From an uncultured Clostridium sp. (GTDB lineage: Bacteria; Bacillota; Clostridia; TANB77; CAG-508), in assembly GCA_947570695.1 (NCBI GenBank), contig CANOVB010000005.1, positions 67,487 through 131,486 of the forward strand: 64,000 bases of DNA, written 5' to 3'. Each line of letters opens with the position of its first letter. Position 1 is the stretch's first letter. Positions 6,750 through 61,874 of the stretch are shown piece after piece. The position numbers and the translations under genes are program-made. The notes beneath the pieces were generated by a model that saw only the letters and a program-made list of their open reading frames with translations, had not been told where the DNA came from and ran no database searches.

Positions 6750-6810
6750 GAATTATATAAAGTTTATATGAATTCATAGGAAAGTAGTGCTAAGGTGGCA
6801 CTGCTTTTTT

Positions 6811-7030
6811 ATTTAGTAGAAAAGAGCTATGCATCATACTAAATAAAAGCTTGCGCTAATTTTACACACAAATTTAATAATGCCAATATTAAAAATATTG
6901 ATATACTGATACTGTAATAGCTAAAACTTAAATAGTATTAGTAATTTTGTGTGAGCGAACATTTCTTAATTATGTGAAATGAGCTACAGATAAGTTATTG
7001 CAGAGGAAAGATGTGGACAATTTAGAAAAG
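6811..7030 (+). repeat. Intergenic repeat family IGR-1, copy R1, with an IGR-2 element nested in its module-C hairpin loop
   Basis: Hairpin atttagta..tactaaat, then aaaagcttgcgctaattt, then stem cacacaaatt(6864-6873)/aattttgtgtg(6943-6953) enclosing about 70 nt homologous to 21241-21312. It is followed by ctacagataagttattgcagag, which is shared with copy R2. Confidence 0.7.
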
Positions 7031-7212
7031 TTTTATCTTTTACATATAATATTTAGGCAATTTAGAAAAAAGTTTATTTTGCATATTAAGTATTTTTAGC
7101 TTTGTTTAAAAAATAAGTTTTATAGTTTTCTTGAAAAAACATATAAGTAATGATAACATAATAAAAAACAATTTATTTGTATTTTATTAAAAATAAAGAA
7201 ATGGTGGATATT

Positions 7213-8876: not shown

Positions 8877-9072
8877 TTATATTATAGGAAATTGCTAAAA
8901 AATTCTAAAAGCTTCGCCAAAATTTGAGCACAATTTTACTATGTAAAATTGGTGCAAAAACATTTCTTAGATGTAGCAAATGAAATGAACTACAGATAAG
9001 TTATTGCAGAGAAAAGGAGAGGACATTTGCGTTTGTTTTTTGCAATTATCATAATGTACTCTTTTGTTTTTT
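8877..9072 (+). repeat. Intergenic repeat family IGR-1, copy R2
   Basis: Modules: tattataggaaattgc..., aaaagcttcgccaaaattt, hairpin gcacaattttac-tat-gtaaaattggtgc, ctacagataagttattgcagag, and long stem gagaggacatt...aatgtactcttttgtttt. Confidence 0.7.
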
Positions 9073-9150
9073 AGAAGAATATGCAATTAAATAAAATACA
9101 TTTTAAATATTATTTACTTTTATACTTTTGAGAAAAAATATGATAAAGTA

Positions 9151-10458: not shown

Positions 10459-10524
10459 AATTAAAAAGTAAATTTGGTAAAAAAATCAAAGGTTATTAAA
10501 AATAATTTTTGATTTTTTTTAATA

Positions 10525-10553
10525 TTGCAAAAATGCCTAGAGTGATATATAAT
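10525..10553 (+). promoter_or_regulatory. Sigma-A type promoter of leuS
   Basis: TTGCAA (10525-10530), 17-nt spacer, TATAAT (10548-10553). It follows the rplT terminator aaaatcaaa...tttgatttttttt. Confidence 0.55.
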
Positions 10554-10589
10554 AAAAAACATCATAATAAAGAAAAGGGAGAGAAAGCT

Positions 10590-13502
10590 ATGGGATATAA
10601 TTTTAAAGAAGTAGAAGAAAAATGGCAAAAAAAATGGTATGAAGAAGGAACTTTTAATGCAAAACAAGATTTTACAAATAAAAAGAAATGGTATGGATTA
10701 ATAGAATTTCCTTATCCATCAGGGCAAGGTCTACATGTAGGACATCCAAGATCTTATACAGCATTAGATATTATTGCAAGAAAGAAAAGAATGGAAGGAT
10801 ATAATGTTTTGTATCCTATTGGTTTTGATGCTTTCGGACTCCCAGCTGAAAATTATGCTATTAAAAATCATGTTCACCCAAAAATAACAACAGAAAATAA
10901 TGTAAATCATTTTAGAGAACAATTAAAATCTTTAGGATTTTCTTTTGATTGGTCAAGAGAAGTAAATACAACAGATCCAGAATATTATAAATGGACACAA
11001 TGGATTTTTATTCAATTATATAAACATGGATTAGCTTATAAAGCTACTATGCCAATTAATTTCTGTACTGGTTGTAAAGTTGGATTAGCAAATGAGGAAG
11101 TTGTTAATGGTGTTTGCGAAAGATGTGGAAGCCCAGTAGTGCAAAAAGAAAAATCACAATGGATGCTTAAAATAACAGAATATGCTCAAAGATTAATTGA
11201 TGATTTAGATGATATAGATTATTTAGATAAAATAAAAGCTCAACAAAAGAATTGGATAGGTAGAAGTGAAGGGGCAGAGGTTAATTTTAAAGTTGCCTCT
11301 GATGAAGATATTATATTTAATAAAGATTCAAAAGTAGAGAAAATTAATTCTAGTGAAAATGATTCTTTATTAATTTATACTACTAGACCAGATACAATAT
11401 TTGGAGCAACATATATGGTTGTAGCTCCAGAACATGAATTAATAAAAAAATATGCAGATAAAATTACTAATTTATCAGAAGTAGAAGAATATAAGAAAAA
11501 AGCTGCTTTAAAATCTGATTTTGAAAGATCAGAGTTAAATAAAGAAAAAACTGGTGTTGAAATTAAAGGACTTAAAGCAATTAATCCATTAACAAATGAA
11601 GCTATTCCAATTTGGATTTCTGATTATGTTTTAATTACTTATGGGACAGGTGCTATTATGGCAGTTCCTGCACATGATGATAGAGATTTTGAATTTGCAA
11701 CTAAATTTAATTTACCTATAAAACAAGTTATTGCACCAGTATTTTATGGAACAGGAGATTCAGAAGTAAGACCAGATAAGAAAAATACAGAAAGAAAAGT
11801 CATTAATGTAGTTGTAAAACATCCAACAGAAAAAAAATTCTTATGTGTAAACAATGATAAATTTGGATTTAAGAATTTTGTTATGGGTGGATTTGAAGGA
11901 GAAGAAACGCCAGTAGAAGCAGCAGCTAGAGAGCTTAGAGAAGAAACTGGTTATACTGATTTTAGAGTGGATTATGTTTTTGATTTTATTTATAAATCAA
12001 AATTTTATGCTGCACATAAAGATGTAAATAGAGATATTACTTGTTATACTGTTGCTGTAACTTTAAATTCATTAAAACAAGAAAAAGTATCAGAAGAAGA
12101 ACAAAAAATTCAATATCCAGTATGGGTAAATGCAGATAAATTAAATGAATATTTAACAACAGAAGAACATATATACACATATTCATTATATGAAAAACCT
12201 CAAGCCTTTACAGATGTTGAAAAAGGAGTTGCTATAAATTCAGATTTCCTAAATGGATTATCTTCAAAAGAAGCTATAAAAAAGGCAACAGATTATATTG
12301 AAGAAAAGAAATTAGGAGAAAGAAAAGTAAATTATAAATTACGTGATTGGGTATTTTCTCGTCAAAGATATTGGGGAGAGCCAATACCAATGGTATATTG
12401 CGAAGATTGTGGCTGGAATCCAATTAAAGAAGAAGAATTACCACTCGTACTTCCAGATATAGAAGATTATGAACCGGGAGAAAATGGAGAGTCACCTTTA
12501 GCAAAACAAACAGAATGGATAAAAACAAAATGTCCATGTTGTGGTAAGGATGCTAAAAGAGAAACAGATACAATGCCACAGTGGGCAGGTTCTTCATGGT
12601 ATTTCCTAAGATATATGGATGCTCATAATAAAGAAGCTTTGGCTTCAAAGGAAGCATTAGAATATTGGTCACCAATAGATTGGTATAATGGAGGAATGGA
12701 GCATACAACACTTCACTTATTATACTCAAGATTTTGGCATAAATTTTTATATGATATTGGTGTTGTTCCAACAAAAGAGCCATATCAAAAACGTACTTCA
12801 CATGGTATGATTTTAGGTGGAAATGGTGAAAAAATGTCTAAATCAAAAGGAAATGTTATAAATCCTGATGATATAGTTAAAGAGTTTGGTGCAGATACTT
12901 TTAGAGTATATGAAATGTTTATGGGACCTTTTGATCAAACAGCACCATGGTCTATGGAATCTATTAGAGGATGTGGCAAATTCTTAGATAGAGTATGGAA
13001 TATGCAAGATATTTTGGTAGACGGAGATGAATATTCTAAAGAGCATGAAAAAATGATGCATAAAGCTATAAAAAAAGTTACTTCAGATATTGAGGAAATG
13101 AAATTTAATACTTCAGTTGCAGAATTTATGAAAATGACAAATGAATTTTATAAGGATAAAAAGATTAATAAGGCAGAATATAAAACATTTTTACAATTAT
13201 TAAATCCATTTGCACCACATATGACAGAAGAATTATTTAATATTCTAGGAGAGACTAAGACAATAAATGAAACACCTTGGCCAAAATATGATGAAGCTAA
13301 AACTATTGATGATGAAATAGAAATACCAGTACAAGTAAATGGAAAGGTAAAAGCTGTTATTACTGCTAATAAAGAAGCTTCTCAAGAAGAAGTTAAGGCT
13401 ATAGTAGATAGTAATGAAATAATTAAAAATGCTTTGGCAGGAAAAAATGTAGTAAAAGAAATTTATGTAAAAGGAAAAATATACAATATAGTAGTTAAAT
13501 AA
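10590..13502 (+). CDS. leuS: Leucyl-tRNA synthetase carrying an internal Nudix-domain insertion (11733-12227)
   Basis: Start is ATG 10590 ([16 protein letters not shown]) after AAGGGAGAG. HIGH-type [13 protein letters not shown], two CxxC...CxxC zinc knuckles, and the editing-domain blocks [19 protein letters not shown] and [14 protein letters not shown] Nudix box [23 protein letters not shown] lies at 11886-11954. Confidence 0.95.
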
Positions 13503-13578
13503 TAAAAAAGTGAATTTAAATATTTCAAAATGAACCTAATTGTTAGACGAATCTGTTTAATAAGAAGGGTTCATTTTT

Positions 13579-13920
13579 TATATAATAAAAGATTGCTTTC
13601 AGATTTCTATTATATAAAGCTTTAAGTAAAAGTTGGGCACGATTTTATAAAATAAAATCAGAATATATAGTATTTTTAGATGTAAAAAATGCGCAGATAG
13701 GTTATTGAAGAAAAAAGATGAGGATATTTGCATTTTTACAATTATTATAGTGTCCGCTTTAATCCTATAATAGGAATTTGCTTAGTAATTTCTATTATAG
13801 AATAACTTTTCTAAAATTTGTACACAATTTTACTATGCAAAATTGACACGGAAACAAATACGAGGATATTGGCATTTAGTTTTTACTTTTGCAATTATTA
13901 TAATATTCACTTTTGTTCTT
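13579..13920 (+). repeat. Intergenic repeat family IGR-1, two tandem copies (R3a about 13579-13762, R3b about 13765-13920)
   Basis: Each copy begins with a tataata(g/a)ga...tctattata hairpin. R3b has acaattttac-tat-gcaaaattg and the long stem gaaacaaatacgaggatatt...aatattcacttttgttctt. Confidence 0.7.
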
Positions 13921-13996
13921 ATTTAAATAAAAATATGTTGATACTATGAAAACTGAATTTTAATAGTATAAAATGGAGAATATAAAAATTTATATT

Positions 13997-14821: not shown

Positions 14822-16099
14822 TTACGTGATATTCAATGTTTTGCCGTTGGTCAAGACCACTTGTGTTACGAGTCCCAATTTGTTGGTGTTGAAGCTCGCA
14901 GCGTCGTAACAGAACCGATAGCCGTCCTGAGGGCGGTCATAGATGGAACTGACGAACACCTGATTATCCCTGATATAGCAGAACTGCTTATCAGAGATGA
15001 AGCCGAAAGCGGTGATGTTTGACATGTACCACCCTGTATAGATTCTCGAGGCGATAATCGTCCCATTGAGATACAGGGAGCCGTCTGTAAGCATCAGAGT
15101 GTTGCTTTCAACTGTGCCCTTGGTGTACAAGGTAGCATAGGTGTCCTTTACGACAGCGTAGGTTTCCTTAGCAATCCACTTGTCGTTTGTGGAGGTGAAT
15201 TGCTTCAGGGTGTAAGTGGACTTCTCTGTAACGATTTCCGAGAGGAAACCATTGCTGTCAGTCCTGAAGGTCTTGAACTTGCTGTCCAGGGTAACCTTCT
15301 CCGCAGAGTACCAGTTTCCGAAAGTGAAACGGTACAGAGTACCATTGCTTTCGTAGAGGTACACGTTGTAGCTGGTATCGAATCCCAAGAATTTAGCACC
15401 CTTAAGGGTGTCGGACAGCCGGACGCCGTGAGTTGCATTGAGAACGCTCTTTTCGTCTTTGCTCACAATGATGGAAACCTTCAGGTTGCCAAACTCGTAA
15501 GCGTTACGAACGAACTCGCTCTCAGCGTTGGTGTACATTTCAACACGGCTGGTGTTATTTCCCGGCCTCTGAGGAACAGAAGGCTGAGAAGGCTGGCTGG
15601 GTTGAGACGGCTGGGAAGGCTGAGTCGGCGTACTGGGAACGGTGCTACCAGTAAGAGACTGGTTACCACTTGTGGTTTGCACCGAAGTTGCCAGATCGTC
15701 GCTGTTGTAAAGCAGACATGTTACGCCAGAAGCGTACCAAGTCGATTGCTTACCATCGCTTCCAACGCTAATCAGTGCACCAGCGCTGGTGACGTAGAAG
15801 AAATCGCCATTTGTGGCAAAGCCGTTGTAACGGGAACCGGAGCCAGCAGAGTTGCTCGCAAGAACGGTTCCATTGTTGTTATACACGGTGCTGCCGATGC
15901 TGTAAAAGCTTTTGCTGGGAACGTGGGCGTCCTGCCGGCGGTCATAGGTGTACAGCTTGTACCAGGTGCAGCCCGAGGAGGCGTCATCATAGGTAAAGCC
16001 GTACGGCGCTGTGTCGGCGGTCGTGGCGGCGAAAGCAGTGGGGCAGACCCCAAAGAAGCAGCACACAACCAGGAACAATGCGATCAAAGATTTTTTCAT
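14822..16099 (-). CDS. Secreted two-domain protein of unknown function with a (PSQ)n linker; GC-rich and foreign in composition
   Basis: Start is ATG 16099 (MKKSLIALFLVVCCFFGVCPTAFA|ATTAD, a signal peptide) after GAAAGG. The linker is PSTPTQPSQPSQPSQPSQPSVPQRPG. GC3-rich codons differ from all neighbouring genes. Confidence 0.8.
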   Translation of the reverse strand: MKKSLIALFLVVCCFFGVCPTAFAATTADTAPYGFTYDDASSGCTWYKLYTYDRRQDAHVPSKSFYSIGSTVYNNNGTVLASNSAGSGSRYNGFATNGDFFYVTSAGALISVGSDGKQSTWYASGVTCLLYNSDDLATSVQTTSGNQSLTGSTVPSTPTQPSQPSQPSQPSQPSVPQRPGNNTSRVEMYTNAESEFVRNAYEFGNLKVSIIVSKDEKSVLNATHGVRLSDTLKGAKFLGFDTSYNVYLYESNGTLYRFTFGNWYSAEKVTLDSKFKTFRTDSNGFLSEIVTEKSTYTLKQFTSTNDKWIAKETYAVVKDTYATLYTKGTVESNTLMLTDGSLYLNGTIIASRIYTGWYMSNITAFGFISDKQFCYIRDNQVFVSSIYDRPQDGYRFCYDAASFNTNKLGLVTQVVLTNGKTLNIT

Positions 16100-16247
16100 G
16101 TTAGTCAACCTTTCTGTGTTAAAATAAATCTTCAAAACCATGTTAGTTCAACAAATAGCCAAAAGGTCAGCTAAATAAAGTTGAACATCAAATCCCATAA
16201 AATCATTATAGCACAAACTAGTAAAAAAGGCAAATTTATGTAAAGCT

Positions 16248-28144: not shown

Positions 28145-28180
28145 AAATATTGACCCAAAAACTTTTAGGAGGAAATTGTG

Positions 28181-28528
28181 ATGAACGGTAGCAACAATCG
28201 CACTATGGAGTTGACGGCAATGAACGAGCAAGGCGTTTTCACCCTGATTTTCCGGGATGACGAGCTGCTGAGAGAGTTCGAGAACATGGTTTCCATGTTC
28301 AACCGGAAGCAGGAAGAGCTGATCGTCACCGAGATCGGCGAAAGCAACGGCAGAATCTTTGAGGTCAAGCGCGTCGAGGGACGCCCCACTTGTTGGGAGC
28401 TGGCTCTGCACAAGTATATGAGCCTGTCCAACACCACAAAGACCAACAAGATTACCGGAAAGAAGTACGAGCCTGTACTGTTTACGCCGCTGCGCTTCGT
28501 GAGTCAGACAGAAGAAGCGGCCTGCTAA
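28181..28528 (+). CDS. Hypothetical 115-aa protein (GC-rich cassette, island 2)
   Basis: AGGAGG (28167-28172), 8 nt, then ATG 28181. About 52% GC in sampled lines. GC3-rich codons. No motif recognised. Confidence 0.7.
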   Translation: MNGSNNRTMELTAMNEQGVFTLIFRDDELLREFENMVSMFNRKQEELIVTEIGESNGRIFEVKRVEGRPTCWELALHKYMSLSNTTKTNKITGKKYEPVLFTPLRFVSQTEEAAC

Positions 28529-28587: not shown

Positions 28588-28614
28588 CCCCGCCACTATG
28601 GCGGGGTTTTATTT
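28588..28614 (+). terminator. Rho-independent terminator of the GC-rich cassette
   Basis: ccccgcca-cta-tggcgggg followed by ttttattt. Confidence 0.85.
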
Positions 28615-28615
28615 A

Positions 28616-28870
28616 TATAATAGGAAATTCCTATAGAATTCCTATTATATAAAGCCTTCGGCAACATTTCACAGAAAAATTGCTATGCAATTTTTTGCGG
28701 GCGAACAAAGACGAGCCACTTAAATACACTAAAATGTTTGAGAATTTTAAAAGTGGCTCTTTTGTTCTTTAATAGAAAAGTGCTCTGTACTTTTATTAGA
28801 TAAAGCTTTCATCGACTTTATACAGAAAAACGATAAAGCAATTTTTTATAATATAAAGAAGTTGCCAAAA
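28616..28870 (+). repeat. Intergenic repeat family IGR-1, copy R5a (28616-28770) plus truncated R5b (28771-28870)
   Basis: taataggaaattc..gaattcctatta hairpin, ataaagccttcggcaacattt, gaaaaattgc-tat-gcaatttttt hairpin, and long stem gaacaaagacgagccactt...aagtggctcttttgttc. The second unit begins aatagaaaagtgctctgtacttttatt gataaagctttc. Confidence 0.75.
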
Positions 28871-36328: not shown

Positions 36329-36357
36329 TTGCAAAAATAAGAAGCATTTATTATAAT
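36329..36357 (+). promoter_or_regulatory. Sigma-A type promoter ahead of the duplicated mini-ORF modules
   Basis: TTGCAA (36329-36334), 17-nt spacer, TATAAT (36352-36357). Confidence 0.55.
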
Positions 36358-36393
36358 AAAAATGTATTAATAAAAAGAAAAGGAAAAATAAAA

Positions 36394-36462
36394 ATGCATA
36401 AACTTAAAACCATTGCAAGAGTACACACACACACACACACACACACACAAGTAGAATTTTAA
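36394..36462 (+). CDS. Leader-like mini-ORF MHKLKTIARVHTHTHTHTQVEF (22 aa)
   Basis: AGGA lies 9 nt upstream of the ATG. The His-Thr repeat is encoded by the (AC)13 tract. Translation is unproven. Confidence 0.35.
   Translation: MHKLKTIARVHTHTHTHTQVEF
36423..36449. repeat. (AC)13 dinucleotide microsatellite
   Basis: acacacacacacacacacacacacaca, counted directly. The paralogous site 36827-36838 carries only an interrupted short tract (acatacacacaca). Confidence 0.95.
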
Positions 36463-36505
36463 AAGAAGAAAAAAGAGTAGATAACATCTACTCTAAAAGC
36501 AATGT

Positions 36506-36570
36506 AAAAAATAGGTCTTTCCTAAGCAAATATAGAAATATGTTTGTTTAGAAGTGACCTATTTTTTATT
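36506..36570 (+). terminator. Long-stem terminator T1 between mini-ORF 1 and 34-aa ORF 1
   Basis: aaaaaataggtc...gacctatttttt, with an internally paired loop (ctttcctaagcaaa/tttgtttagaag) and a T-run. Confidence 0.65.
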
Positions 36571-36630
36571 TTGAATTTAATTATAAAAAATTAAAGAGTA
36601 GGAAAATAAAAAAGAAAGGAGATAAAATAT

Positions 36631-36735
36631 ATGGAAAATAGCAAAATGCATTATCAAACGCCAGAATTTACATATGGAGTGATGGTGGATATTTATAAAG
36701 AAATAGGAAAAGATAGCCCTTCTATCATAGAATAA
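36631..36735 (+). CDS. 34-aa peptide MENSKMHYQTPEFTYGVMVDIYKEIGKDSPSIIE
   Basis: AGGAGA lies 8 nt upstream of the ATG. It is paralogous to the ORF at 37024 through the shared Y-x-T-P-E-[FL]-x-x-G-x-[MI]-x-D-[IL]-[YF] motif. Confidence 0.55.
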   Translation: MENSKMHYQTPEFTYGVMVDIYKEIGKDSPSIIE

Positions 36736-36767
36736 ATATTGAAAAAACGAAATAAAGTATAAAAGTA

Positions 36768-36895
36768 TAATAACAAAAGAAAAGGAAAAATGAAACATGC
36801 ATAAACTTAAAAACGTTGCAAGAGTACATACACACACAAGTAGAAATTTAAAAGAAGAAAAAGAGTAGATAATATCTACTCTAGAGCTGTTGTAA
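36768..36895 (+). repeat. Direct repeat unit 2 (paralogue of 36368-36500)
   Basis: See unit 1. Contains the mini-ORF at 36797-36868 and the hairpin agagtagat-aat-atctactct (36862-36882). Confidence 0.85.
36797..36868 (+). CDS. Leader-like mini-ORF MHKLKNVARVHTHTSRNLKEEKE (23 aa)
   Basis: Same start context as 36394. The shorter AC tract puts it in a different downstream frame, so it terminates at a TAG inside the hairpin arm. Confidence 0.3.
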   Translation: MHKLKNVARVHTHTSRNLKEEKE

Positions 36896-36916
36896 ATCAA
36901 ATAATATTAAGAATAA

Positions 36917-36960
36917 AGTCTTTAATTAGAAAAAGGTTTTCTAATTGGAGGCTTTTTTTT
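36917..36960 (+). terminator. Terminator T2 between mini-ORF 2 and 34-aa ORF 2
   Basis: tttaattagaaaa-gg-ttttctaattgg followed by aggc and T8. Confidence 0.65.
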
Positions 36961-37023
36961 GCGTGAAAATATATTATTTTGCAATTTAAAAAAGCTTATT
37001 AAATAAAAAGGAGATTATTGATA

Positions 37024-37128
37024 ATGAATGATAAATTTAAAATAGAATATAAAACTCCAGAATTAAAATTGGGAGAAATAACGGATTTATTTATTGCAAC
37101 AGCATGGAAAAGTGAAGATTATATGTAA
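37024..37128 (+). CDS. 34-aa peptide MNDKFKIEYKTPELKLGEITDLFIATAWKSEDYM
   Basis: AAGGAGA lies 9 nt upstream of the ATG. It is a paralogue of 36631-36735. Confidence 0.55.
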   Translation: MNDKFKIEYKTPELKLGEITDLFIATAWKSEDYM

Positions 37129-37161
37129 AAAAGAGAGATAGAAAATAATCTATTATAAGTA

Positions 37162-37195: not shown

Positions 37196-37435
37196 CATAG
37201 TAAAAAAGGCGTTTGATTAAGAATTAAGTAGTAAATAAACTTTTTAAAAGAGAGCTTATGGTTGGTGAGAATAAGTAAAAGAATTTACGAAATCTACTCT
37301 TAAGAGTTTCTAGAAAACTAGACCGAGTTATTGCAGGTTATAGCAATTTGAAAGATGGATTAGATTAATCTAAAAAAGGTGGTACCGCGATATATTCGCC
37401 CTTATGTATTTTTTACATGGGGGCGTTTTTGTTTA
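37196..37435 (+). promoter_or_regulatory. T-box leader, probable Ser (UCU) specifier
   Basis: T-box sequence aaaaaaGGTGGTACCGCG (37372-37389). Terminator cgcccttatgta-ttttt-tacatgggggcg plus T5 (37397-37430). Stem-I AGAGA and GGTGAGA elements. The specifier-loop candidate is GAAA-TCT-A (TCT at 37293-37295). serS is the third gene downstream. Confidence 0.85.
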
Positions 37436-37483
37436 AAATATTATATTTTACGAAAGATAAATAGAAAAATTAGGAGGTAAATT

Positions 37484-38284
37484 ATGATATTTAATGGAAA
37501 TGATATTAAAAAATTAATTGATGAAGAAAAGATAATTGATAATTGTGATAAGGAATATATTGCTTCAGGTTCGTGTGATATATCAATGAGCAAGGAAATC
37601 TTAAAAATAAAGAAGACTTTTAAACCAATAGATTTATCAAGTCCTGAAAATATAGAAAATATGTATGAAAAAATAGAAATTAAAGAAAGCTACAATTTTA
37701 AACCTAATGAAGTTATTTTTGTAAAATTAAACGAAAAAATAAATTTACCATCAAATATTGTAGCACATATAAGACCTAGAACTTCATTAAGTAGATTAGG
37801 TATAATAATAAATTTTCAACATATTAATGCAGGATATAGTGGTACTTTAAATATAGCAATGTATAATCTATCTCCTAATACTTATAAAATACAGCCAGGA
37901 ATGAGAATAGGGCAGATTGTATTTGAGGAGTTAACAGATGGAATTACTGATGATTTAATATATGGAAACGAAAAGAATCCAAGCTACCAAAACGAAGATG
38001 GGTTAACTGGCTCAAAGATATATGGTGATTTTGTAGGAAAAGTATTTAGACATTTTAAGGGAAACTATTATTTTATAGAAGATGTTAGCACAGATTCTGA
38101 AACTAAAGAAGATATAATAGTTTATAGACCCTTGTATGAGAGACAAGATTCTATGCTTTGGACAAGACCAGCAAAAATGTTTTTTGAGGAAATTGATGAA
38201 AATAGAAAAGATAATGTAACTGGTCAAAAACACAGGTTTGAACTGGTTGAAGATTTAAGTAAAGATTATATAAGTGAAAAATAA
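37484..38284 (+). CDS. dCTP deaminase/dUTPase-fold protein fused to a C-terminal DUF1653 domain
   Basis: N-terminal IRPRTSLSRLGIIINFQHINAGYSGTLNIAMYNLSPNTYKIQPGMRIGQIVFEEL is the Dcd-family signature. C-terminal FRHFKGNYYFIEDV...IIVYRPLY...WTRPAKMFFE...GQKHRFELV is the DUF1653 signature (recognised from memory). Confidence 0.75.
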   Translation: MIFNGNDIKKLIDEEKIIDNCDKEYIASGSCDISMSKEILKIKKTFKPIDLSSPENIENMYEKIEIKESYNFKPNEVIFVKLNEKINLPSNIVAHIRPRTSLSRLGIIINFQHINAGYSGTLNIAMYNLSPNTYKIQPGMRIGQIVFEELTDGITDDLIYGNEKNPSYQNEDGLTGSKIYGDFVGKVFRHFKGNYYFIEDVSTDSETKEDIIVYRPLYERQDSMLWTRPAKMFFEEIDENRKDNVTGQKHRFELVEDLSKDYISEK

Positions 38285-38598: not shown

Positions 38599-39882
38599 AT
38601 GATAGATATTAAAATTTTAAGAGAAAATCCAGAAATGGTAAAAGAAAATATAAGAAAAAAATTTCAAGATCATAAATTAGTTTTAGTAGATGAAGTTTTA
38701 GAATTAGATAAAGAAAGCAGAGAGCTAACATTAGTGTGTGATGAGCTTCGTATGAAAAGAAATTCTACTAGTAAAGAAATAGGAAATTTAATGGCAAATG
38801 GGAATAAGGAAGAAGCTGAAAACAAAAAGAAAGAAGTGCAAGAAATTAATGAGAAATTAGAAGCAAATGAGGGCAGAGAAGCAGAATTAAAGGAAGAAAT
38901 AAAATCAAGAATGATGAAAATACCAAATATAATGGATGCATCAGTTCCTATAGGTAAAGATGATAGTGAAAACGTAGAAAATGAAAAATTTGGAGATCCA
39001 GTTGTTCCAGATTATGAAATTCCATATCATGCAGATATAATTGAAAGTTTTAATGGATTGGATAAAGAAAGCGCTGGTAGAACAAGTGGAAATGGATTTT
39101 ATTATTTATTAGGTGATGTAGCAAGACTTCATGAAGCAATGATTGCTTATGCTAGAGATTTTATGATAGATAAAGGATTTACTTATTGTATACCTCCTTT
39201 TATGATTAGAAGTGATGTTGTAAATGGAGTTATGAGCTTTGAAGAATTAGAAGCAATGATGTATAAAATAGAGGGAGAAGATTTATATTTAATTGGAACA
39301 AGTGAACATTCAATGATTGGAAAATTTAAAGGTCAAATTGTAAAAGAAGAAGAATTACCTATTGCTATAACAGGATATTCTCCTTGCTTTAGAAAAGAAG
39401 TTGGATCTCATGGATTAGAAGAGAGAGGCTTGTATAGAGTTCATCAATTTGAAAAACAAGAAATGATTGTTCTTTGTAAACCAGAGGATCAAATGGATTG
39501 GTATAATAAAATGTGGAGTTATACAGTAGAATTTTTTAGAAGTTTAGATGTACCAGTAAGAACTTTAGAATGTTGCAGTGGAGATTTAGCAGACTTAAAA
39601 GTTAAATCTTGTGATGTTGAGGCATGGAGCCCACGTCAAAAGAAGTATTTTGAGGTAGGTAGTTGTTCTACGTTAGGAGATGCACAAGCAAGAAGATTAG
39701 GAATTAGAGCAAAAGGAGATAAAGGAAATTATTTAGTAGCTACTTTAAATAATACTGTAGTAGCAAGTCCAAGAGGTCTAATCGCAGTTTTAGAAAATAA
39801 TTATCAAGCAGATGGAAGCGTATTAGTACCAAAAGCTTTACAAAAATATATGGGTGGAAAAGAAAAAATAATGACCAAATAG
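38599..39882 (+). CDS. serS: Seryl-tRNA synthetase
   Basis: N-terminal coiled-coil arm and class II motifs (YLIGTSEHS, FRKEVGSHG..GLYRVHQFEK, GDAQARRL, LNNTVVASPR). Confidence 0.96.
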   Translation: MIDIKILRENPEMVKENIRKKFQDHKLVLVDEVLELDKESRELTLVCDELRMKRNSTSKEIGNLMANGNKEEAENKKKEVQEINEKLEANEGREAELKEEIKSRMMKIPNIMDASVPIGKDDSENVENEKFGDPVVPDYEIPYHADIIESFNGLDKESAGRTSGNGFYYLLGDVARLHEAMIAYARDFMIDKGFTYCIPPFMIRSDVVNGVMSFEELEAMMYKIEGEDLYLIGTSEHSMIGKFKGQIVKEEELPIAITGYSPCFRKEVGSHGLEERGLYRVHQFEKQEMIVLCKPEDQMDWYNKMWSYTVEFFRSLDVPVRTLECCSGDLADLKVKSCDVEAWSPRQKKYFEVGSCSTLGDAQARRLGIRAKGDKGNYLVATLNNTVVASPRGLIAVLENNYQADGSVLVPKALQKYMGGKEKIMTK

Positions 39883-48344: not shown

Positions 48345-48385
48345 AATAGAAAGTGCTTTGCACCAATGTAAAATAAAGTTTTAGT
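48345..48385 (+). repeat. Truncated IGR-1 fragment (modules A/B only)
   Basis: aatagaaagtgctttgcac...aaataaagtttt; compare 57601-57640. Confidence 0.5.
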
Positions 48386-57560: not shown

Positions 57561-57597
57561 AAAAAAGATATTTACATTTTTGTAAATATCTTTTTTA
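57561..57597 (+). terminator. clpB terminator
   Basis: aagatatttac-attttt-gtaaatatctt followed by a T-run. Confidence 0.8.
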
Positions 57598-57600
57598 TTT

Positions 57601-57808
57601 AATAGGGAAGTGCTTTGCACTTCCCTATTAAATAAAGCTTTCAGCAACTTTGTGCAGAAAAAATTCAAAGAAATTTTTCGCACATCGAACAAAGACGAGG
57701 GCATTTGCAATAAATTTTGTCTTTTTCAATTTTCATAATGCCTTCTTTTGTTCTTATATGACATTTGCTTTTATATTTTTCAATTATAATAATGTCCTTT
57801 TGAGTTCT
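57601..57808 (+). repeat. Intergenic repeat family IGR-1, copy R6 (best-preserved full copy plus an extra module D)
   Basis: Module A: aatagggaagtgc-ttt-gcacttccctatt (57601-57629). Module B: aaataaagctttcagcaactttg. Module C: gtgcagaaaaaattc-aaa-gaaatttttcgcac (57652-57683). Module D: gaacaaagacgagggcatt...aatgccttcttttgttc (57687-57754). Module D': gacatttgc...aatgtccttttgagttct (to 57808). Confidence 0.8.
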
Positions 57809-57825
57809 AATTTAAACATATTTAA

Positions 57826-60800
57826 TTAGTTTCCATCTGAAATTTTATAAACAATATTAAAATATTCAAATTTATCTGTTTCATTATTATATAGACAATC
57901 TAAATAAGAATTTAATTCTACAATATTTTTACAAGCTGTTATTATTGCTGGATTTAGATTAGAAGTAAACATTAAATCTAATCCTAAGTCTATAGCTGCA
58001 CGAATTGATGATTTTTCTTTTACTCTCATAAGAGTATAAGCCTCTTTGAAACGGGCAGATATAGGATTTTTATATACAGAAAGTGGAACAGTATATTCAT
58101 TTTCTATAACATCATCTACTGTTTTATATTTTTCAGAACCATTAAGTTTTTCACCAATTTCTTCTGAAGTATAAGGTAAGTACACTTTTTGAGTTTCTTC
58201 TGAAATTAGAAGAGTATTGCAATCATAAATTGATGAGACTAAAGCTTCTTCTTCATTTTCTAATTTTGAAATTATATCAGATAAAGAATCCATCATTTTA
58301 AATAAATCACTAGCAGGATCATTATCTATATCTATTTCAGAACTAATATCATTTTGGATATCTATTCTGTTTAAAGTATCAATATTATCGAAATTATTTC
58401 CTTCATTAAAGAATTCAGCAACATCAGTATGTTGAACATTAGTTTCTTTATCAATTTCAATATCAATATTTTCTTCACTAAATTCTTCACTAATACCAAA
58501 ATCTTCTTTATTTAAATTTTCACTACAATAGGTGATTTCTTCATTAGCATTGTAAATATCTTCTGAAGAATTATTTTGAATTTTACCATTTTCTTCATTA
58601 ATATTTTTTTCAACTGGTGCTCCAACTGTTAAAATTTCATTTTCAACATCTGATTCAAGCTCTATTTTTTCTGAAGTATTATCTAAGTCAAAAGAAACAT
58701 TTAATGTATTAGAAGACTCAAAAGATAAAACTTCTGTTAATAATTCCTCTTTCATCTTTTCATCAATATCACATTCAGATGAAGAAAGTTTTTCTTCAAA
58801 AATACTTTCTATGCTAGAAGCCTCATCATTAACTATATCTGATTCAGCAATAGTTTCTATATCTTTAATGTAATTTACATTTTCGGCTTCATTATCTAAA
58901 CTAGAGATATCATCATTTATATTGTCTATTTTAGTTGGAACTACGATGTTGTTATAGTAAGTAGCTTCATCATTAAGTGATAAATCATCAGAAATAGGGG
59001 AAGGAGCTACCTGAACTTCTGGTACAGCAACAGTATTAGCTGCAGCTACTTCTTGAATGGCTTCTAATGGTTTGGCAGTTGGTTCAAAATTATTTAAAAC
59101 ATTATGAATATCATTTTTCAATGAATTAACATCTGTTTGTAAGAAACTGTTTCCAAATGGTGTATTTAAGTTTGAATTTATAAAATTAGTTTCATCAAAA
59201 CTGAATTTTTTAAATATATTTGAAAATGCAGGAGTTGAAGATTTAGAACTTTCAGGTTTTGAAAAGCCTATTACATCCGTATTAATACTGCCAGCTACTT
59301 CAAAGGATAATTTATTTGTTAAATTAGTAGATGTTTCATCAATATTATTAAATGGAATAATGTTATCTGCTGCTTCATCTAAAACTACTCCATTTGTATA
59401 GTCATCATTTTCTATAGATGAATTTTCTTTTTCATAAAAATTTTCAGAAGGTAGTATATCATAATTATTAAAGTATATATTTAAATCTATATCTTTATCT
59501 TGAACTTCAACTTTATCTGAAGTTTCAGTTACTTCATCAATATTATCAATAACTTCTTCTTGTGTATCGCTTAAAATTTCATTTGCTTCATAACTAGTTT
59601 CAGAATCGTTTTGTATATCGCCTAAAGTTTTATCTACTTCATAGTTAGTTTTAGAATCTTCTTGTGTATTATCTGAAATTTCATTTGATTCATAATTAGT
59701 TTCATCTTGAATATTATTTGAAACTTCATTTATTTCGGAAATATTTTGTATATAATCATTAACATCATTTATAACTTCATCTTCAGAATTAATAGAATAG
59801 TCGTCAATTTTGTTAGTAATTTCAGCACAATCAGAGCTATTTAAATTGTCTACTTCCTCATCAATAATTTCAACTTCTGAATTAGTTTCAATTAAAGAGT
59901 CATATTCTTTTTCAATTTCTAATTCAGTATCAACATCAGCTTCAGAAACAACAATATCAAGTCCATTATCTATATCTCCAAGTAGAGGAGAATAATCGTT
60001 TCCTATTGAAGTTTTCACTTTACTAATATCAATAATTTTATCTGAATTTATATTTCCATCATTAATAGAATTTTCATTTTCTTCAACAATTTCTCCAGTA
60101 ATGTTGAATATATCTGAAATTTCTGTATCTATAATATTTGTAACATCATCTGAATTTGTTTCATTAATAATAGAATTATCAGAGATTTCTGCTTGATCAT
60201 TTGTTATATCATCAAAAGAGCAAATATCTTCAATTAAATCAGAAGAGTTATCTTCGATTTCTGTAATTACATTATTAATAGCAGATGCAATTTCTGATTC
60301 AATATCATAAGTTTCATCTGTTTTTATATTATCAACTTCTTCGATAGTAGAGGTATAGATATCATCAGTTTCGTTTTCTGAGTCTGTAACTGTAATATCA
60401 AATTTTTTAAATACAGAAGGTTCATAGAAAAATGTTGCATTTTGATTTATAGAAGAATCCTTTTTTGTGGATGCGCTAGAAACAACAGGTGTAACAACTA
60501 GAAGTGGCACATCTTGTAGTGGAACTTCTTTTTTTTCATTTGCAACTCCATTAACAGGTTCTTTAAATTCTTCTTTAACTGTTTCTTTATTTTTCCCTAA
60601 ATTTAAACAAAGATTTCTTTTTCTAGAATTGCCTTTTTTTACTATATCTGGTCTTATAATACTATGCTTAATTGCAGAATTTATAGAGACTGTAGGCAAT
60701 ACTTCAGGCTCTATTTTTACATTTTCTTTTTTTGGTTTAGAGACTTTTTCTGTAGTTTTTTTCTTAGTGTCTACAGTTGTTTTTTTGGCAGTAGTTTTTT

Positions 60801-60891
60801 TACTAATTTTTAATGTTGGTTTTGATTTTGATTTTGCTTTAGATTTTGATCCTGCTTTTTTTTCAACTGCTTTTGCGGATTTTGTTACCAT
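57826..60891 (-). CDS. 1021-aa protein with a lysine-rich N-terminus, a roughly 750-aa D/E/N/S/I-rich low-complexity core and a roughly 150-aa ordered C-terminal domain
   Basis: GGAGG RBS. N-terminus KSAKAVEKKAGSKSKAKSKSKPTLKISKKTTAKKTT. Tandem roughly 16-aa repeats (TNYESNEISDNTQEDSK / TNYEVDKTLGDIQNDSE / TSYEANEILSDTQEE). C-terminus ...YLPYTSEEIGEKL...NPAIITACKNIVELNSYLDCLYN. Confidence 0.75.
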   Translation of the reverse strand: MVTKSAKAVEKKAGSKSKAKSKSKPTLKISKKTTAKKTTVDTKKKTTEKVSKPKKENVKIEPEVLPTVSINSAIKHSIIRPDIVKKGNSRKRNLCLNLGKNKETVKEEFKEPVNGVANEKKEVPLQDVPLLVVTPVVSSASTKKDSSINQNATFFYEPSVFKKFDITVTDSENETDDIYTSTIEEVDNIKTDETYDIESEIASAINNVITEIEDNSSDLIEDICSFDDITNDQAEISDNSIINETNSDDVTNIIDTEISDIFNITGEIVEENENSINDGNINSDKIIDISKVKTSIGNDYSPLLGDIDNGLDIVVSEADVDTELEIEKEYDSLIETNSEVEIIDEEVDNLNSSDCAEITNKIDDYSINSEDEVINDVNDYIQNISEINEVSNNIQDETNYESNEISDNTQEDSKTNYEVDKTLGDIQNDSETSYEANEILSDTQEEVIDNIDEVTETSDKVEVQDKDIDLNIYFNNYDILPSENFYEKENSSIENDDYTNGVVLDEAADNIIPFNNIDETSTNLTNKLSFEVAGSINTDVIGFSKPESSKSSTPAFSNIFKKFSFDETNFINSNLNTPFGNSFLQTDVNSLKNDIHNVLNNFEPTAKPLEAIQEVAAANTVAVPEVQVAPSPISDDLSLNDEATYYNNIVVPTKIDNINDDISSLDNEAENVNYIKDIETIAESDIVNDEASSIESIFEEKLSSSECDIDEKMKEELLTEVLSFESSNTLNVSFDLDNTSEKIELESDVENEILTVGAPVEKNINEENGKIQNNSSEDIYNANEEITYCSENLNKEDFGISEEFSEENIDIEIDKETNVQHTDVAEFFNEGNNFDNIDTLNRIDIQNDISSEIDIDNDPASDLFKMMDSLSDIISKLENEEEALVSSIYDCNTLLISEETQKVYLPYTSEEIGEKLNGSEKYKTVDDVIENEYTVPLSVYKNPISARFKEAYTLMRVKEKSSIRAAIDLGLDLMFTSNLNPAIITACKNIVELNSYLDCLYNNETDKFEYFNIVYKISDGN

Positions 60892-61132: not shown

Positions 61133-61663
61133 ATGGCAGATAGTCCAGAAGTAATAGAGGCAAGAGAGAAAAGGGATGATAGAGATTTTTTCTTAAGTAG
61201 AGTTGAAGAAATGCCAAATTTAATTGAGTGGGCAAATGATCAAATACGTGATGATAAAGAAGTTATTATGAAGGCAATTAAATCTGATGGTGGGGCATTG
61301 GAGTTTGCAAGTAATAGGCTTAAAGATGATAAAGAAGTTTTATTAGAAGCAGTTAGCCAGTCAGGATGGACTTGCTGTTATGCTAGTGAAAAGTTGAAGA
61401 CTGATAAAGATGTTCTTTTAACAGCTTCAAAAAATGATGGACAAGTTTTATATTTTGCAAGCAAAGAACTTAGAGATGATAAAGATGTAGTACTTGCTGC
61501 AGTAGAAAATAAACCTATTATTTTAAAATATGCAAGTTTTAGATTAAGAAATGATAAAGAAGTAGCTATAAAAGCTGTTAGTAAAGCTAAGAAAAAAGTT
61601 TGGGATTATATTTCTCCTGAACTTAGAGAAGACGAAGAGATAAAGAAATTGTTAGAAGAATAG
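61133..61663 (+). CDS. DUF4116 repeat protein
   Basis: Five copies of a roughly 30-aa repeat D(D/K)KEV(I/L/V)..A(I/V)...G.(A/V)L.(F/Y)AS..L(K/R)(D/N)D. ATG 61133 follows AAAGGAG. Confidence 0.75.
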   Translation: MADSPEVIEAREKRDDRDFFLSRVEEMPNLIEWANDQIRDDKEVIMKAIKSDGGALEFASNRLKDDKEVLLEAVSQSGWTCCYASEKLKTDKDVLLTASKNDGQVLYFASKELRDDKDVVLAAVENKPIILKYASFRLRNDKEVAIKAVSKAKKKVWDYISPELREDEEIKKLLEE

Positions 61664-61690
61664 AATAAAAGAGGATATTATAATAATTGT

Positions 61691-61815
61691 AAAAACAAAA
61701 CTAAATGATAATGATGTCATCTTTGTTGTGTGTGCTGATTTTATTTTATAAAATTGTATACAAATTTTGATGAAGCTTTTTTATAGAAATTGCAGAGCAA
61801 TTTACTATAATATAA
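61691..61815 (-). repeat. Intergenic repeat family IGR-1, copy R7 (inverted orientation, short form)
   Basis: The reverse complement reads tattatagtaaattgc-tct-gcaatttctataa aaaagcttcatcaaaatttgtatacaattttataaaataaaatcag...aacaaagatgac...ttttgttttt; compare R3a. Confidence 0.65.
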
Positions 61816-61874
61816 AAAAATAGAATAAACCTTTCTTTTTAGAATATATAATTAAAAAGAGAGGTTTTATTTTT

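Follow-up and report, generated by a model that had tools for sequence, protein, structure and literature searches.

What kind of element is the hairpin-rich repeat that recurs between the genes of an uncultured gut Clostridium, and does compensatory change in its hairpins make it an RNA gene? The question arises from a 64,000-nucleotide stretch of DNA (the window; contig CANOVB010000005.1, positions 67,487 to 131,486), which is identical in sequence to the ENA gut-metagenome contig ERZ14864678 NODE_73, has a G+C content of ~26%, carries its genes mostly on the + strand and has an ordinary chromosomal gene content (clpB, leuS, the HU gene, infC, rplT, serS, obg, spoVA, and yabP). A first-pass annotation had described a dense family of modular repeats in this window, among them one at positions 57601-57808, and had offered three candidate explanations: a family of 3'-untranslated region (3'-UTR) or small-RNA structures, protein-binding insulator or terminator modules, and a novel non-autonomous element. 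Among these three we favour the last, because orthologous sites are found empty, copies within sister genomes are near-identical, truncated copies occur, and copies form tandem arrays. The element is probably a non-autonomous interspersed repeat of ~155-160 bp that has spread within a low-G+C, spore-forming lineage of gut Clostridia. The family is a new one of a familiar kind, the small bacterial interspersed repeats, and not a new class of RNA gene.

To take a census, we used iterated nhmmer with two profiles, one for the 5' modules A, B, and C (ABC, 77 nt) and one for the 3' module D (68 nt), which in the window recovered the 5' part eight times and the 3' part seven times (E 2e-16 to 5e-4; Table 1). 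A covariance-model scan of the window with filters off revealed no additional strong copies, and a conserved 20-mer of the module D loop matched at six places in the window with up to three mismatches, where 0.11 matches are expected, all of them within copies. Together, the nhmmer, covariance-model, and 20-mer results show a genuine family, well outside what chance would produce. Five copies in the window are complete or nearly so, three are degenerate or partial, and two more are fragments. All copies listed previously exist at the places given, subject to minor corrections: the inverted copy runs from 61658 to 61815 rather than from 61691, and 57601-57808 is not a single copy but a full copy (R6, 57595-57754) followed by a solo 3' unit (57760-57808). 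The copy placed at 6811-7030 is present, but as a degenerate long variant rather than an ordinary member, and the fragment at 48345-48385 is visible by eye but lies under every model threshold.

The first-pass annotation had placed the copies just 3' of genes, and this position can be sharpened: each starts directly after a hairpin and T-tract. In ~28 of 36 distinct full copies, counted by eye, a strong locus-specific hairpin ends 0-5 nt before the first bases of the element (TTAT), and the 50 nt upstream of the copies have a median folding z of -5.2. As empty clpB sites demonstrate, the upstream hairpin and T-tract are the gene's own intrinsic terminator. Orientation follows the upstream gene. 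In gaps between co-directional genes, 43 copies have the orientation of the genes while 3 are opposite, and 14 copies lie in convergent gaps compared with 3 in divergent ones. Solo 3' units likewise lie directly after terminators, behind the housekeeping genes for SpoVT, AlaRS, AspRS, Dus, and FolD. A scan of 34 copies for copy-specific target-site duplications, covering all boundary offsets and lengths of 3-8, found none, the best excess of matching flanks over mismatched pairings being 3.4 copies at a length of 3. The 5' flank after the T-tract ends with TTAT, TTCT, TTGT, or similar and is inseparable from the tail of the terminator itself.

Comparison of orthologous intergenic regions, which drew on ~0.8 Mb of genome fragments from relatives (loci numbered with the prefix L) in which the genes adjoining copies are housekeeping genes, revealed presence/absence differences at the clpB and yabP sites. 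The clpB site is filled in the window and in L070-72, and contains only the terminator or terminators in L073, L074/75, L076-78, L079-81, and L082, i.e. in five lineages with ClpB proteins 86-90% identical. The site between the DUF4116 gene and yabP holds copy R7 in the window and is empty in L057 and L074, and L074 has no copies at all across 22.6 kb syntenic with the window. Conversely, two spoVA genes that have no copy between them in the window are separated by a partial one in L031. In L074 the empty allele of the yabP site reads hairpin-ATTC-CACTTTTTAT and resembles the 3' end of the element; because the target resembles this end, R7 is flanked by an 11-nt direct repeat. We note that a perfect hairpin at 61829-61869 lies directly upstream of yabP, has the ribosome-binding site (agagagg) in its 3' arm, and is kept in L057 and L074; its opposite strand is the "terminator-like" target for R7. 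Locus L006 was considered as an empty site for copy R5 and set aside, its upstream region not being orthologous.

The family extends well beyond the window. A scan of one genome per species with a 22-base module D pattern matched 33 places, nearly all of them in a few uncultured Clostridia metagenome-assembled genomes (MAGs), namely two to four Hadza and human-gut MAGs, MGYG-HGUT-04073, UBA7001, and Ca. Scatovivens faecipullorum; the same pattern matched 29 metagenome contigs from human gut and apparently rumen samples. Overall, the family is present in at least 10 related gut or rumen Clostridia assemblies. Searches of plasmids, phages, and viral contigs gave no matches, and a plasmid, phage, or viral origin was rejected on this basis. 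A Fusobacterium origin, with the 131-bp repeat of Karpathy 2007 as relative, had been suggested by the 26% G+C content and was likewise rejected, since the genome scan pointed to uncultured Clostridia and the window encodes SpoVA and YabP. Identity among copies is 0.85-0.86 inside CAKPRG, CABUJR, and Ga0247611 (assemblies or samples) as opposed to 0.64 in the window. Products of decay are common: we found ~25 solo 3' units, consisting of the last ~45 nt, as well as solo A-B-C pieces, and in tandem arrays the units are joined by a single junction in which ...CTTTTGTTAT is followed directly by ATAATAGG.... One lone A-B-C piece, in L012, was considered as a link to an autonomous partner and is a remnant.

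In relatives, the unit is crisp in length (~155-160 nt), with a G+C content of 21-35%. It consists, in order, of the 5' bases TTAT, hairpin A, a small hairpin B, hairpin C, a long hairpin D, and the 3' end ...CACTTTTGTTCT. The consensus 5' end is TTATATAATAGGAAAG, while the 3' end is formed by a stem (GTGGACAT.../...ATGTCCAC) followed by TTTTGTTCT and resembles a terminator-type target. The consensus ends do not match each other and there are no terminal inverted repeats; together with the lack of copy-specific target duplications, this bears out the earlier view that the family is not a simple MITE (miniature inverted-repeat transposable element). In three window copies, C and D are separated by an additional module of ~50 nt (6959-7005, 8960-9011, and 13673-13711), which has small hairpins of its own and is absent from all 60-odd loci of relatives; it represents either a subfamily specific to the lineage or a nested insertion.

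To quantify pairing, we aligned 41 copies (alignment A6) to a model of four hairpins with 51 pairs (model R1, distinct from the copy R1 in Table 1). Standard pairs filled 93.8% of the cells in the four hairpins compared with 45.6-49.6% in slid controls; 36 of the 51 pairs had changed on both sides compared with 17 in shuffles; the covariation score was 0.282 compared with 0.109; and none of 500 shuffles attained any of the observed values. On an independent MAFFT alignment of 24 copies, RNAalifold predicted hairpins A, C, and D with compensatory change in 13 of 30 pairs. The pairs quoted previously for module C (gcac/gtgc, gtgc/gcac, and cacac/gtgtg) and for module D (gcatt/aatgc, cactt/aagtg, atatt/aatat, and acatt/aatgt) all read as they had been given, and compensatory substitution in the family, in hairpins A, B, C, and upper D, is confirmed. 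Covariation is seen at nearly all pairs of hairpins A, B, and C and mainly at one pair of the upper D stem (UA 26, GC 8, AU 3). The basal D stem (GAACAAAG/CUUUUGUUC), in contrast, never covaries and retains a G.U pair in 30 of 41 copies, and conservation of sequence is seen both in this stem and in 20 nt of the D loop. The earlier statement that selection acts on structure rather than on sequence therefore applies to the hairpins but not to these two parts. Its suggestion of cruciform DNA fares worse: cells with G.U (116) outnumber those with A.C (43) and G.U is the consensus state at two pairs, and this excess favours folding of the strand shown over a cruciform. Folding energy is equal for both strands and by itself does not permit a choice of strand.

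How might such an element move? In the mechanism that we propose, a trans-acting enzyme encoded elsewhere would move the element through a single-stranded folded intermediate, which would be either single-stranded DNA, as in reactions of the IS200/IS605 or attC type, or RNA, as in group IIC introns. The enzyme would recognise a hairpin followed by CTTTTTTAT, that is, hairpin plus T-tract, as its target, and the 3' end of the element (D stem plus CACTTTTGTTCT) would be a mimic of this target, which would explain the tandem arrays. Continued propagation would require intact hairpins, and because propagating copies need them, compensatory doubles would mark subfamilies. After insertion, copies would decay to solo 3' units and solo A-B-C pieces through deletion between T-runs. 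It is possible, although we hold it doubtful, that the element embodies an undescribed mobility mechanism, in which a folded single strand is inserted specifically at terminators and a 3' target mimic permits stacking. If true, this would point to a new structure-reading HUH enzyme or tyrosine recombinase, or to mobilisation in trans by a terminator-seeking reverse transcriptase.

Several points weigh against a mobile repeat directed to terminators. That it is so common behind terminators may in part be due to insertions being tolerated there rather than to targeting, and its orientation with genes is confounded with replication direction: with gene-corrected G-C skew, six of seven convergent cases follow the inferred leading strand, a number too small to decide. 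The comparisons of filled and empty sites cross species (ClpB 83-92% identical), no polymorphism was seen among strains of the same species as the window (identity of at least 99.2%), the exact element ends depend on few sites, and the differences at the compared sites could formally be precise losses instead of gains. The alignment used for the pair counts was fitted to the structure, although the independent MAFFT/RNAalifold run agrees. No transposase, recombinase, or reverse transcriptase is encoded in the window, and no protein family recurs beside copies in an all-against-all BLASTP of the open reading frames (ORFs) of the loci, so that a recurrent neighbouring gene was rejected as autonomous partner. 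Finally, some copies may have an RNA role.

Solo 3' units were considered as right ends of IS605/TnpB elements and rejected, the genes upstream of them being housekeeping genes. As a separate observation, in L046 (~3455) and L060 (~2770) a repeat copy is followed, 46 nt after its end, by an ORF starting VQNAFGYARLSKDDGS, the N-terminus of which resembles a serine recombinase by eye; this is a single case.

A first alternative, which we consider unlikely, is that the repeats are a functional RNA family (3'-UTR structures or small RNAs serving, for example, as stabilisers, back-up terminators, or base-pairing regulators) under selection for RNA structure, with repeat spread being secondary. Such a family would show the strong covariation and the co-orientation with upstream genes described above. 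The G.U excess lies on the sense strand of the upstream gene, the D stem with UUUUGUU is terminator-like, some of the old, diverged window copies still fold well (R6 and R5, z ~ -8), and transcription is on record for both bcr1 and BOX repeats (PMC3184786, PMC3049150). Against this, the copies start after an intrinsic terminator and have no promoter-like site above chance, which speaks against the 3'-UTR or small-RNA gene family among the original candidates; both strands fold with the same energy, and for several window copies the fold is no stronger than in shuffles (R3b and R7, z ~ -2). Moreover, truncated and tandem copies are common, and close relatives differ in whether a given housekeeping locus has the element, which is missing altogether from the 22 kb of synteny in L074. 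A promoter inside module D was looked for specifically and rejected, the scan count not exceeding that of shuffles and inspection by hand giving no -35/-10 pair with legal spacing; nor did a sporulation-sigma promoter consensus fit module D by hand.

The conserved stretch of the D loop raises a second alternative, which we judge very unlikely, namely a DNA-level protein-binding module recruited by the host in the manner of REP/BIME repeats, with the D-loop motif (AATTATCATAAT core) as the site of a nucleoid protein, topoisomerase, or regulator and the hairpins as an insulator between transcription units. That 20 nt are conserved within an otherwise variable unpaired loop would fit such a module, as would the imperfect 7-1-7 palindrome of the motif core, read from the consensus, and the persistence behind many genes of solo 3' units that keep only the motif part. 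Yet the motif is found solely inside the repeats, it has decayed in two copies that retain their stems (R5 and that of L070), the REP hallmarks (GTAG/CGTC head, G+C-rich palindrome of 20-40 nt) are missing, and the G.U asymmetry points to folding of one strand and not to a duplex or cruciform. As to particular functions of the motif, a DNA-uptake sequence was rejected, the motif being confined to the repeats, and by-eye comparison with the consensus sites of Fur, PerR, CodY, CcpA, and Spo0A operators gave no convincing match.

A mutational origin of the doubles by quasi-palindrome correction, in which intrastrand template switching during replication copies one hairpin arm onto the other and so produces "double" changes in one step, would suit hairpin A, a long near-perfect palindrome (the geometry known for quasipalindrome mutagenesis) that varies mostly at its apex, but is highly improbable for the family: many pairs are found in G.U intermediates (14/51, 18/47, 71/77, 85/124, and 90/119) and two have G.U as consensus, states that arm-copying would erase, the short helices B and C with their non-palindromic loops covary as strongly as A, and doubles are common to dispersed subfamily copies. 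In the Ga0247611 rumen set, for instance, GGGGACATT/AATGTCCCC and AAATC/GATTT are subfamily-wide. Because dispersed copies have these doubles in common, they were already present in copies that later multiplied.

Does the repeat belong to a known system? In agreement with the first-pass annotation, which could not assign it to a family, the covariance-model scan with Rfam returned none: with Rfam 15, only a T-box and glmS pass the gathering threshold in the window, and relaxed searches gave nothing credible on a copy at E up to 10 or on a consensus-like tandem pair at E of at most 0.1. A classical, DDE transposase-derived MITE is similarly short, non-coding, multicopy, and polymorphic in its presence, but was rejected for want of terminal inverted repeats and target-site duplications in the element. 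With the PATEs derived from IS200/IS605 and with REP/RAYT systems, the element shares the lack of both these features, subterminal hairpins at both ends, strand-specific behaviour (its top strand falls on the template of the inferred lagging strand at most loci that are informative), and possibly insertion 3' of a short fixed sequence, here the ...TTAT that is inseparable from the terminator tail. However, its left and right hairpins are unrelated in sequence, and no Y1/HUH transposase or full-length parent was seen in the window or beside copies; the element may be a miniature derivative of IS200/IS605. REP is marked by an imperfect, G+C-rich palindrome 20-40 nt long that has GTAG or CGTC as its head (PMC3733652); these hallmarks are absent, and the element alignment has no head of this type. 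Integron attC sites are, like this element, imperfect hairpins conserved in structure and variable in sequence, of which one folded strand is read; they follow genes at their 3' ends, all with the one orientation, and form arrays with one recombination core per unit. Here, in contrast, there are no R/L boxes (GTTRRRY, to which the GTTCTAT/GTTATAT of the 3' end does not conform), the copies adjoin housekeeping genes (clpB, leuS, the HU gene, and infC) rather than cassettes, and no integrase is nearby.

Among small interspersed repeats, bcr1, from the Bacillus cereus group (Okstad 2004; Klevan 2007; reviewed in PMC3184786), is similar in several respects: it is ~155 bp, intergenic, found in Firmicutes, patchy among related strains, and without an enzyme of its own, its independent stem-loops show compensatory changes, and it is regarded as a mobile repeat in a class apart. 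It differs in being flanked by 5-bp direct repeats, whereas the scan of 34 copies here found no copy-specific duplication, and in having two stem-loops, compared here with four and a loop conserved in sequence; for bcr1, no junction with a terminator is reported, and the host here belongs to an unrelated Clostridia lineage. This comparison is one of described features. The pneumococcal SPRITE repeats are AT-rich and terminator-like and are enriched near 3' ends and between convergent genes, much as seen here, with target duplication undetermined in SPRITE, but consist of one 18-bp duplex and a U-rich tract in ~105 nt (PMC3049150). BOX repeats share a modular build (A-Bn-C) with modules present or absent and with lone modules, but have terminal inverted repeats and target duplications (PMC3049150). 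The strand bias of pneumococcal repeats is ~61-63% (PMC3049150) compared with 43 to 3 here. Unlike them, the present element adjoins an existing terminator and does not replace one.

Group IIC introns, which are ribozyme/reverse-transcriptase retroelements of ~2 kb, are to our knowledge the only other elements with terminator-specific targeting. The element presumably lacks the group IIC intron end consensus, and group II intron models gave no match to its 160 nt even at permissive E-values. Its likeness to these introns is limited to insertion behaviour, i.e. insertion in one orientation just after intrinsic terminators and, in the mechanism proposed here, recognition of a DNA stem-loop rather than a long sequence, as Robart 2007 (via PMC4424553) describes for the introns. 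Because the repeat lacks defining features of a classical MITE, REP, group II intron, and attC site and matches no Rfam family, we file it as a new family among small structured interspersed repeats. Its novelty is that of a new family with an unusually precise terminator association within a known class (cf. bcr1, BOX, and SPRITE).

For the host, by analogy with BOX, SPRITE, REP, and bcr1 (PMC3049150, PMC3184786), the added hairpins and the terminator-like module could provide a possible back-up terminator or 3'-end stabiliser, and most copies are probably near-neutral. The stacking of hairpins behind terminators offers a case for asking about read-through or mRNA stability, while exact abutment on terminators without inverted repeats or duplications makes the element a tractable case for how something so small finds terminators. 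The family is also a clean example that strong covariation alone is no indicator of an RNA gene, since propagating repeats carry doubles as subfamily markers. In practice, covariance model R1 and alignment A6 could serve to annotate the family in widespread uncultured gut and rumen Clostridia and so avoid that copies are called small ORFs or novel small RNAs, and presence or absence at clpB and yabP could mark lineages in the clade.

Table 1 Repeat copies and associated features in the window, with the nhmmer and covariance-model matches assigned to each
Feature	Coordinates	Strand	nhmmer ABC match	nhmmer D match	Covariance-model match	Remarks
R1, degenerate long variant downstream of HU gene	6809-7060	+	6817-6876		6809-6908 (weaker, partial); 24.5 bits	Hairpin C loop enlarged by ~70-nt insertion; extra module at 6959-7005
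R2, long variant between 199-aa gene and infC	8877-9074	+	8881-8948	9009-9068	8923-9074 (further match), 47 bits (47.5)	Extra module 8960-9011
R3a, long variant, first of tandem pair behind leuS	13578-13765	+	13582-13656	13710-13765	13578-13677 and 13715-13760 (weaker, partial)	Seen with nhmmer and covariance model
R3b, full copy, second of tandem pair behind leuS	13763-13923	+	13767-13842	13853-13919	13763-13923 (strong), 107 bits (106.8), E 2e-20	
R5, full copy, adjoins G+C-rich terminator of 116-aa gene	28613-28772	+	28616-28691	28703-28768	28613-28772 (strong), 123 bits (123.2)	
R5b, partial (A-B-C only), tandem after R5	28770-28856	+	28770-28840 (E 3e-8)		28773-28856 (weaker, partial)	
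Fragment (module A and start of B) behind RluA-family gene	48345-48385	+				By eye only; under all model thresholds
Intrinsic terminator of clpB, aaaaaagatatttaca-ttttt-gtaaatatctttttt	57561-57596	+				Target site, outside repeat; folded hairpin z -4.3
R6, full copy	57595-57754	+	57600-57672	57687-57754	57595-57758 (strong), 146 bits (146.3), E 1e-28, model positions 1-164	Fold -55.1 kcal/mol, z -8.6
R6, hairpin A	57595-57636					
R6, hairpin B	57637-57645					
R6, hairpin C	57652-57683					
R6, hairpin D	57687-57753					
R6, conserved D-loop motif TTTTTCAATTTTCATAATGC (family consensus TTTTGCAATTATCATAATGT)	57722-57741	+				Sequence matching
Solo 3' unit (3' half of D), tandem after R6	57760-57808	+		57760-57807 (profile positions 14-67, E 5e-4)	57760-57796 (weaker, partial); 22 bits	
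R7, copy between DUF4116 gene and yabP	61658-61815	-	61740-61811 (-)	61662-61727 (-)	61658-61815 (-) (further match), 76 bits (76.3)	

Other features of the window are recorded here in their own right. Two genes stand out by base composition. The gene at 14822-16141 (-), ~50% G+C, has a 439-aa product, which bears a signal peptide and contains PSQ repeats, and a G+C-rich terminator; that at 28178-28528 (+), ~55% G+C, has a strong sigma-70-like promoter and a product of 116 aa and also ends in a G+C-rich terminator, to which R5 adjoins on the 3' side. Neither has a match in Pfam, NCBIfam, or Rfam, and both have the look of genes recently acquired by horizontal transfer from a donor of high G+C content. 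LeuS (10509-13502) has 997 aa compared with 845 aa in its L016 ortholog and gives a weak Nudix-like match at residues 429-500 (TIGR02705, E 2e-5), which suggests a domain inserted into the synthetase.

Upstream of the T-box, a module of ~400 nt is present as a tandem duplicate (36340-37130), for which Rfam returned nothing. Each copy contains a promoter-like TATAAT, a tiny ORF running through a (CA)n tract, a terminator hairpin, and a 34-aa ORF; the first tiny ORF is MHKLKTIARVHTHTHTHTHTQVEF, with its (CA)n tract at ~36425-36450, and in the second copy the tract is shorter. The module may be a slippage-prone leader or a small-peptide locus. The T-box leader itself (93.8 bits) is followed by a dCTP-deaminase-like/DUF1653 fusion gene (together 37203-38284), an unusual first gene for a T-box unit, and serS (38599-39882) comes only after it. 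Lastly, convergent with clpB lies a 1021-aa ORF (57826-60891, -) that has no Pfam or NCBIfam match and contains tandem repeats of 45-51 nt at 59555-59749; its orthologs in relatives range from ~1086 to 1263 aa.

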